Positions 6,537-6,880 of a stretch of 7,944 bases of DNA are shown here, piece by piece (position 1 is the first letter of the stretch; every line of letters starts with the position of its first letter). The stretch is from contig QMWL02000031.1 of assembly GCA_003661605.2 (NCBI GenBank), positions 1-7,944 of the forward strand, read 5' to 3'. The notes beneath the pieces were generated by a model. It saw only the letters and a list, made by a program, of their open reading frames with translations, searched no databases and had not been told where the DNA came from. The position numbers were made by a program, and so were the translations under genes. Source of the stretch: an archaeon. GTDB lineage: Archaea; Thermoproteota; QMWL01.

Positions 6537-6671
6537 TGGTGGGCCCGGTGGGATTCGAGCCCACGGCCTTCGGGTCTCTCCGAGCTCCAGAGGCGCCGTC
6601 ATTCCATAGCGGTCTGCAGACCCGTTCTCTCCTCTGGAGCCCGACGCCATTCCTGGCTAGGCCACGGGCCC
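6537..6671 (-). tRNA. trnW: tRNA-Trp (anticodon CCA) with a 58-nt intron at the canonical 37/38 position and a genome-encoded 3' CCA
   Basis: The minus strand reads GGGCCCG-TG-GCCTAGCCAGGAATGGC-G-TCGGG-CTCCAG[intron]A-CCCGA-AGGCC-GTGGG-CTCGAAT-CCCAC-CGGGCCC-A-CCA. It has a 7/7 G-C acceptor stem, a GTGGG/CCCAC T-stem with a CTCGAAT loop, G18G19 in the D-loop, and a TCGGG/CCCGA anticodon stem. The anticodon CCA lies at 6637-6635. Exon 1 is 6671-6634, the intron is 6633-6576, and exon 2 is 6575-6537. The spliced length is 77 nt including CCA. Confidence 0.92.
6576..6633 (-). other. tRNA-Trp intron (58 nt) with a bulge-helix-bulge splice motif and box C/D-like guide features
   Basis: Intron sequence: AGGAGAGAACGGGTCTGCAGACCGCTATGGAATGACGGCGCCTCTGGAGCTCGGAGAG. 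C32-C35 pair with intron GGAG (i53-56). This helix is flanked by 3-nt bulges A36-G37-i1 and i57-i58-A38. Two further antisense elements and GA-containing box-like motifs are described in the findings. Confidence 0.85.
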
Positions 6672-6748: not shown

Positions 6749-6880
6749 GGGGTGGTGTCGGCCATAGGGGTGCGGGAACCACGCGATCCCGTTCCGAACT
6801 CGCCAGTGAAACCGCACCCCGTTCCCGGTGGTACTGTGGTGCGGGAGCCCACGGGAAGCCGGGAAGCCGATGCCACCCCC
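6749..6880 (+). rRNA. rrf: 5S ribosomal RNA, stand-alone (not linked to 16S/23S in this window)
   Basis: Helix I: 6749-6762 GGGGTGGTGTCGGC pairs with 6866-6879 GCCGATGCCACCCC (14 bp, 2 G.U). Helix II: GGGGTGCGG (6767-6775) pairs with CCGCACCCC (6812-6820). Loop C has the conserved CCCGTTCCGAAC. Helix IV/V: TTCCCGG (6822-6828) pairs with CCGGGAA (6859-6865), and CTGTGG pairs with CCACGG. A GGTACTG loop-E-like segment is present. By my hand count it is about 70% G+C. The ends are good to roughly +/-3 nt. Confidence 0.9.

Follow-up and report, generated by a model that had tools for sequence, protein, structure and literature searches.

A 58-nt tRNA-Trp intron from a Thermoproteota archaeon as a putative reduced homologue of the intron-borne box C/D guide

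QMWL02000031.1 (GenBank assembly GCA_003661605.2) is a metagenome contig of the thermoproteotal lineage QMWL01, and the 7,944-nt stretch analysed here, called the window throughout, spans its full length and carries a tRNA-Trp gene interrupted by a 58-nt intron. We propose, with roughly even confidence, that this intron is a reduced and diverged homologue of the archaeal tRNA-Trp intron box C/D guide, that it holds a single kink-turn (K-turn), and that it probably still guides 2′-O-methylation in trans. An intron-borne guide for Cm34 and Um39 is textbook knowledge for Euryarchaeota, and the intron is a modest variant of that already described system rather than a new kind of system. The present analysis adds which modules survive, namely both antisense guides, the C′/D′ pair and a D-like tetramer, and which are lost, namely box C and the terminal K-turn. 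This reduced layout is common to a family of 58–62-nt introns in Thermoproteota.

The tRNA-Trp(CCA) gene occupies 6537–6671 on the minus strand, as do all intron features described below. It was recognized by the Rfam tRNA model at 6671–6540 (49.1 bits, anticodon CCA), with the encoded 3′ CCA reaching 6537, and was missed by ARAGORN. Exon 1 (6671–6634) and exon 2 (6575–6537) flank the intron (6576–6633), which lies at the canonical 37/38 position and is numbered from i1 (6633) to i58 (6576). A first-pass annotation of the window had read this intron as a minimal, degenerate box C/D guide aimed at positions 34 and 39; every string and coordinate that it gave was verified at its position.

The first antisense element, guide (a), is i41–50 (CCTCTGGAGC), the exact reverse complement of G31–G37 plus i1–3 (10 bp). 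It lies, as CCUCUGGAGC, within the 13-nt spacer i39–51 (6583–6595) and is followed after one base by CGGA (i52–55, 6579–6582). The fifth base upstream of this tetramer (the N+5 position), G47, pairs with the wobble base C34 (6637), which the N+5 geometry predicts as the 2′-O-methylation target of guide (a). In cis the duplex can be extended to 13 bp, from C28 to i3 with i41 to i53 and with one G-U pair, and it is present in the minimum-free-energy fold. The second element, guide (b), is i10–17 (CGGGUCUG, 6617–6624), which the Rfam sR3 consensus contains unchanged as aCGGGUCUg. In the unspliced RNA, i10–16 (CGGGTCT) pairs with i57, i58 and A38–G42 (7 bp); in the spliced tRNA, i10–17 pairs with C35–G42 (8 bp). 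Guide (b) is followed directly by CAGA (i18–21, 6613–6616), and its fifth base upstream, G13, pairs with C39 (6574), the predicted target by the same geometry. Both guides show the antisense arrangement expected of box C/D RNAs, about 10 bp ending at D or D′ with the target at N+5, guide (b) with only 7–8 bp. The intron also has the features that define the tRNA-Trp guide: a 37/38 position, a D guide over the 5′ splice junction and a D′ guide over the 3′ junction.

These elements were compared with those of other tRNA-Trp introns. Scanning one genome per species with an exon-1 pattern yielded 120 loci, mostly from Halobacteria and Methanosarcinales/Methanotrichales and four from Thermoproteota, and a metagenome scan contributed 20 more, one of which (L133) is from the same species as the window. 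After parsing, 93 distinct euryarchaeal introns of about 96–211 nt, all bona fide box C/D guides, served as controls; MAFFT misaligned the short introns, so anchored, scripted comparisons were used instead. The control parse agrees with the box annotation of Grosjean et al. 2008 (PMC2584109, Additional file 4), which gives the haloarchaeal boxes as C = G(G/U)GACGA, C′ = UGACGA, D = CCGA and D′ = CCGA or CUGA. Consistent with the first-pass annotation, the two antisense elements and their N+5 geometry fall at the same positions as in the controls. There the N+5 tetramer for the C34 partner is CCGA (66 introns) or CUGA (27), and that for the position-39 partner is CCGA (45), CUGA (36), CAGA (2) or UCGA (1), the remaining 9 being missing or mis-parsed. 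Duplex (a) runs from G31 to i3, with exactly three intron bases paired, in every clade and control. The pairs between i1–3 and the guide undergo compensatory changes, being AGG:CCU in haloarchaea and the window, CGG:CCG in Methanosarcinales and AGC:GCU in the Bathyarchaeia type of short intron described below. Guide (b) likewise tracks the anticodon stem (ACUGAU in haloarchaea, ACGGGU elsewhere). In the Bathyarchaeia type it also changes in step with the final two bases of the intron, introns that end in GA carrying UUC and those that end in AG carrying UCU. This suggests that the guide pairs with the 3′ junction before splicing, as it does in haloarchaea. These changes are evidence of selection on the pairings.

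Around guide (b), GGUCUGCAGACC (i12–23, 6611–6622) forms a perfect 12-nt palindrome. Guide (b), the D′ box and the first C-stem bases also resemble a degenerate copy of the anticodon stem-loop (CGGG-UCUGCAGA-CCG versus CGGG-CUCCAGA-CCCG), and a similar feature occurs in Bathyarchaeia-type introns (CGGGUUCGCUCGACCCG). A hairpin that hides guide (b), in competition with the K-turn, is possible. We rejected the palindrome as a full account of guide (b): Methanosarcinales have the same guide without it, and the covariation with the intron ends in the Bathyarchaeia type also contradicts this account.

The internal C′/D′ motif is a well-formed K-turn according to our K-turn finder, with the layout D′, hairpin, 3-nt bulge and GA. 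The D′ box CAGA provides the non-bulged strand; the C-stem and its loop follow (i22–30, CCGCUAUGG, 6604–6612), with the pairs C22-G30, C23-G29 and G24·U28. The C′ box (i31–38, A-AUGACGG, 6596–6603) then supplies the bulge A31 A32 U33 and the pairs G34·A21, A35·G20, C36·A19 and G37-C18. This layout was detected automatically in 63 of the 93 controls and in L136, a short intron from Thermoproteota, and the boxes first called D′ = CAGA and C′ = AUGACGG form the same K-turn as in the controls. CAGA is likewise the D′ box of two introns from haloarchaea (L027 and L108), and the C′ of L133, AUGACGA, matches the haloarchaeal UGACGA. L133, a 39.6-kb contig, is 99.4% identical to the window over 2,073 bases. 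The two introns differ at two positions, i38 (G/A) and i51 (U/G); both changes leave the guide pairs and GA dinucleotides intact, and one shifts C′ towards the consensus.

A relationship to the described guides is further supported by alignment to the Rfam family RF01133 (sR3), whose model scores Methanosarcinales and Methanothrix controls at 57.6 and 53.6 bits. Its consensus, AUGAUGA-acAaCGGGUCUg-CUGA-loop-UGAUGA-aCCGUUGGAGCa-CUGA, has as its window counterpart ...AACGGGUCUG-CAGA-CCGCUAUGGA-AUGACGG-CGCCUCUGGAGCU-CGGA, and the hairpin loop is short in both. Global alignment of the intron to this consensus gave z = 4.8, a score reached by 0 of 2000 shuffles, and global alignments with A. fulgidus and M. 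thermophila gave similar results. None of the Rfam C/D families matched the intron.

Splicing requires a fold that competes with guide (a). In the enforced bulge-helix-bulge (BHB) fold, GGAG of the segment i53–58 (GGAGAG, 6576–6581) pairs with C32–C35 in a 4-bp helix (C32–C35 with G53–G56), A36, G37 and i1 form one bulge, and A57, G58 and A38 form the 3′ bulge; the h′ helix consists of G2-C52 and G3·U51. This canonical layout, in which the two 3-nt bulges hold the cleavage sites, is the one drawn for Haloferax volcanii pre-tRNA-Trp (PMC2584109, Additional file 3). The enforced cloverleaf with helix (a) has a free energy of −58.8 kcal/mol at 37 °C and −20.0 at 75 °C, and that with the anticodon stem and BHB has −52.6 and −16.3, respectively; the helix (a) fold is therefore more stable by 6.2 kcal/mol at 37 °C and 3.7 at 75 °C. 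The proposal that the guide duplex and the splicing fold are mutually exclusive is thus upheld by these competing folds.

Related short introns were found in other Thermoproteota. The L136 intron has a K-turn of the window's layout, CAGA-CC-AAUGA-GG-GAU-GA. The Bathyarchaeia-type introns (59–62 nt; L050, L056, L121, L122, L125, L127, L128, L130, L135, L139 and L140) retain a strong C′ (AUGAAGA, or AUGAUGA in L139), a K-turn stem of 5–6 bp and both antisense stretches; their K-turn, UNGA-CCCGC-loop-GCGGG-GAU-GA, lies one base further along than the window's. Among 11 distinct short introns with C34 antisense, the D position reads CGGA (2), GCGA (1), GUGA (2), GAGG (4) or GGGG (2). According to the first-pass annotation, a guide would be disproved if related introns kept the BHB bases while the guides and GA dinucleotides drifted. 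The guides, D′ and C′ have not drifted, box C has, and box D has in part. Neither the genome-collection scan nor the metagenome scan found a close orthologue of the intron beyond the same-species L133, and a cluster look-up found no further strains of this species in the genome collection. Homologues of the flanking flavin adenine dinucleotide oxidoreductase are at most 65% identical and spread over many phyla, and the synteny route to orthologous introns was dropped.

Based on these modules, a mode of action can be proposed. L7Ae would bind the internal C′/D′ K-turn, and Nop5–fibrillarin would assemble there. Pairing in trans with another pre-tRNA-Trp would follow, either by the pre-tRNA or by the intron after its excision, probably as a circle. 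Action in trans would be required because the box-like elements directly abut the cis duplex and leave no slack, and the substrate would be unspliced pre-tRNA-Trp because duplex (a) takes in three intron bases. Guide (b) is predicted to direct ribose methylation of C39, the more secure target because this guide abuts a real K-turn. Guide (a) may also direct methylation of C34, a less secure target, since the D-like box next to this guide lacks a partner and methylation here would require a second platform, of which none was found. Finally, the cis duplex (a) would need to be resolved before the endonuclease cut, because it is more stable than the splicing fold.

Several observations weigh against a working guide. 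The K-turn finder drew no terminal C/D K-turn, in which a flanking stem joins box C (RUGAUGA) to box D (CUGA), for the window, L133 or Bathyarchaeia-type introns; one was found automatically in 86 of the 93 controls. None of the controls uses CGGA as box D, all having CCGA or CUGA instead, and because the BHB strand GGAG that pairs with C32–C35 fixes three of the four CGGA bases, the NNGA match is partly forced. Having no partner C box and overlapping this strand, CGGA could not be sustained as the box D that the first-pass annotation had made of it. The C′–D spacer of 13 nt, said there to fit archaeal small RNAs, departs from the 12 nt seen in all 80 controls in which it could be measured, and the C–D′ spacer is undefined because box C cannot be assigned. 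The C-stem of the internal K-turn is only 2–3 bp long, and the K-turn layout arises in 2.4–8.8% of i22–38 shuffles, which makes it moderately unlikely when taken alone. The sR3 model (gathering threshold 41 bits) did not match the window even at E ≤ 10; this miss weighs little, because the same model, lacking sensitivity, also misses the Halorubrum control L001. In Bathyarchaeia-type introns the GA of D′ stands at N+6 from the C39 partner, so that N+5 would pick A38, and most lack GA at the D position; box geometry is accordingly non-uniform among the short introns. The intron is also evolutionarily dispensable, because the tRNA-Trp of Thermofilum (L087, L126 and L129), identical to the window's over positions 7 to 44 and hence in its anticodon arm, has none. 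The chief argument against precise guiding comes from artificial particles: Hardin and Batey 2006 (PMC1635284) describe single-site C/D ribonucleoproteins (RNPs) as active in vitro with their site specificity lost.

Among the explanations to be weighed against a reduced but working guide, chance complementarity combined with the pairing that any BHB intron needs would account for part of the pattern, since the BHB needs GGAG near the 3′ end and thereby explains three of the four CGGA bases. In 100,000 shuffles of the intron, i1 and the six 3′-terminal bases that form the BHB tail were kept in place. Antisense runs of at least 10 bp over C34 arose in 79 shuffles, runs of at least 7 bp over C39 in 1,694, and both runs of at least 7 bp in 78, but the combined pattern, with CNGA at N+5 of both, arose in none. 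The pattern of the intron is far beyond chance; moreover, the same modules recur in the 93 euryarchaeal introns and show compensatory changes between clades. Chance is effectively refuted and retains a negligible probability. The first-pass annotation had instead drawn a complete two-motif guide, with box C = GAGAGAA (i3–9) joined to D = CGGA, and C′ = AUGACGG to D′ = CAGA. Three GA steps do occur in i3–8, tandem G·A pairs with G54 and A55 can be written on paper, and after circularisation D would lie 5 nt from the GA run, like the A. fulgidus K-loop in our own parsing of the published box table. However, this box C has neither a flanking stem nor a C-stem and yields no terminal K-turn, the 3b·3n and 4b·4n positions would be G·G and A·C, and the C–D′ spacer would be 8 nt. 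The purine-rich 5′ segment that contains it (i1–9, AGGAGAGAA, 6625–6633), of which i1–3 belong to the guide (a) target, is also unconserved, the nearest short introns having unrelated sequences here (AAAACCAAAGAU in L136; AGCGCUA, with no GA, in the Bathyarchaeia type). The GAGAGAA assignment was therefore abandoned, and a complete two-motif guide appears very unlikely.

A relic is the main rival: the intron would descend from a C/D guide and have lost methylation, its antisense stretches and K-turn persisting to shape the pre-tRNA. Duplex (a) would hide the anticodon loop and delay the splicing motif, with L7Ae perhaps only a folding chaperone, or decay may simply be slow. Such a history would fit the missing terminal K-turn, the lack of site specificity in single-site RNPs (PMC1635284), and the drift of the D-box positions in the Bathyarchaeia type (GAGG, GGGG, GUGA). 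It would also fit the status of helix (a) as a real structural competitor, at 6.2 kcal/mol (37 °C) and 3.7 (75 °C) over the BHB, the intronless Thermofilum genes, and the tolerated removal of the intron in H. volcanii (Joardar 2008, as cited in PMC4090602). Nonetheless, both the precise span of the duplex (10 bp, from G31 to i3) and its N+5 register are those of working RNPs, and a folding role needs neither. The C′ box and K-turn layout are kept across otherwise very different short introns, and guide (b) is compensatory with the last two intron bases. We consider a relic possible, if somewhat unlikely. Extending the reading as a reduced but working guide, the 58–62-nt Thermoproteota introns (the window lineage, L136 and the Bathyarchaeia type) might all be natural single-K-turn methylation guides, the second platform being supplied otherwise, by pre-tRNA helices, dimerisation or the ligated circle. 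From the sequences we regard this as doubtful; if true, site specificity would not everywhere depend on the two-motif architecture that is believed to be necessary for it.

Two other candidates for the missing motif were tried and rejected. A K-loop formed by circularisation (CGGA-GAGAG-GA) can be written for the window and is unsupported, the Bathyarchaeia-type 5′ segment having no GA. A box C across the 5′ splice junction (C35–i4, CAGAGGA, with 13/13-nt spacers) is likewise unsupported and requires a 2-nt bulge; it is also weakened by the fact that G37-A1 gives a trivial GA whenever i1 is A.

Compared with the euryarchaeal guide (RF01133 sR3; Pyrococcus sR50; the 103-nt intron of H. volcanii), the window intron shares the host gene and intron position, the 10-bp D duplex from G31 to i3, the D′ guide over the 3′ splice junction, N+5 selection of positions 34 and 39, the D′-hairpin-C′ K-turn and the rivalry with the BHB fold. 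In contrast, it is 58 nt long, against about 96–211 nt in the controls, lacks box C and the terminal stem or K-turn, and is not recognized by the Rfam model; its D is CGGA, fused to the BHB strand, and its C′–D spacer is 13 nt rather than 12. The suggestion that such a guide outside Euryarchaeota would be new is overtaken by published cases. Grosjean et al. 2008 (PMC2584109, Additional file 4) list a canonical tRNA-Trp C/D guide in the crenarchaeote Pyrobaculum arsenaticum, also a member of Thermoproteota. The D guide UGGUCUGGAGCU of Pyrobaculum precedes CUGA and is similar to CCUCUGGAGCU, which precedes CGGA in the window, and the Pyrobaculum C′ box, UGAAGA, is also that of L136 and the Bathyarchaeia type. 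The Pyrobaculum guide differs in having canonical C (UGAUGA), D′ (CUGA) and D (CUGA) boxes, and it aligns only weakly to the window intron (z = 2.1; 58 of 2000 shuffles reach the score).

A second, degenerate case is the 65-nt tRNA-Trp intron of Sulfolobus solfataricus (Danan et al. 2012, PMC3326292), which has no consensus C/D boxes and two short, 7-bp complementarities to positions 34 and 39. Its authors proposed modification guiding as an untested idea; we compared it with the window by description only. The Sulfolobus intron is a very stable circle, whereas the window intron is known from sequence alone. The synthetic single-site (hemi) C/D RNPs of Hardin and Batey 2006 (PMC1635284) likewise consist of one K-turn platform with a guide. 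They are artificial and active but select no single site, whereas the window intron occurs naturally and carries two guides.

Should the reduced intron still direct methylation, it would test in nature what share of the bipartite C/D architecture a guide needs. It would also help to explain the origin of Cm34 in crenarchaeal tRNA-Trp, for which a consensus guide is lacking; Cm34 has been reported in tRNA-Trp of the crenarchaeote S. acidocaldarius (Wolff et al. 2020, PMC7668247). If it is a relic, it records an order of guide decay, with the terminal motif lost before the antisense stretches and the internal K-turn. In both cases the intron extends a published idea.

Past the end of the window, L133 additionally carries aminoacyl-tRNA synthetase genes, GAPDH and DnaG. 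Genes for TrpRS, PheRS alpha, PheRS beta and TyrRS stand in a row (3789–9226 of L133), 3–8 kb from tRNA-Trp, so that the tRNA gene lies near that of its cognate synthetase; beyond this row come GAPDH, DnaG and an NcsA-like tRNA thiolase. Among 5.8 billion proteins, L133 PheRS alpha has no relative with more than 45% identity, and its named matches are from Bathyarchaeia, Methanomethylicia, Hecatellales, Nezhaarchaeota and Thermoprotei. These matches make the initial description of the host as crenarchaeote-like apt in the broad TACK/Thermoproteota sense; its lineage is deep and poorly sampled.

Two further intron-containing tRNA genes were observed in the scanned loci. The tRNA-Trp intron of L090 (Thermoproteota metagenome-assembled genome INS_M20_B145), of about 54 nt, has two GAUGA boxes and no obvious antisense to its own positions 34 and 39, and it may be a guide with a different target. 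On L136, another tRNA gene with an intron (147-nt span, Rfam 39.8 bits) is located at 10422–10568, about 600 nt downstream of tRNA-Trp.

A 5S rRNA gene (6754–6875, plus strand; Rfam 83.4 bits) is divergent from tRNA-Trp across an 82-nt spacer, where the two promoters presumably lie back-to-back. The T-loop of the window tRNA-Trp (T arm at 6552–6564, minus strand) reads CUCGAAU and thus has C at position 54. This position is almost universally U in tRNAs. The T-loop of L133 is the usual UUCGAAU, and the window's C54 is either a real polymorphism or an assembly error.

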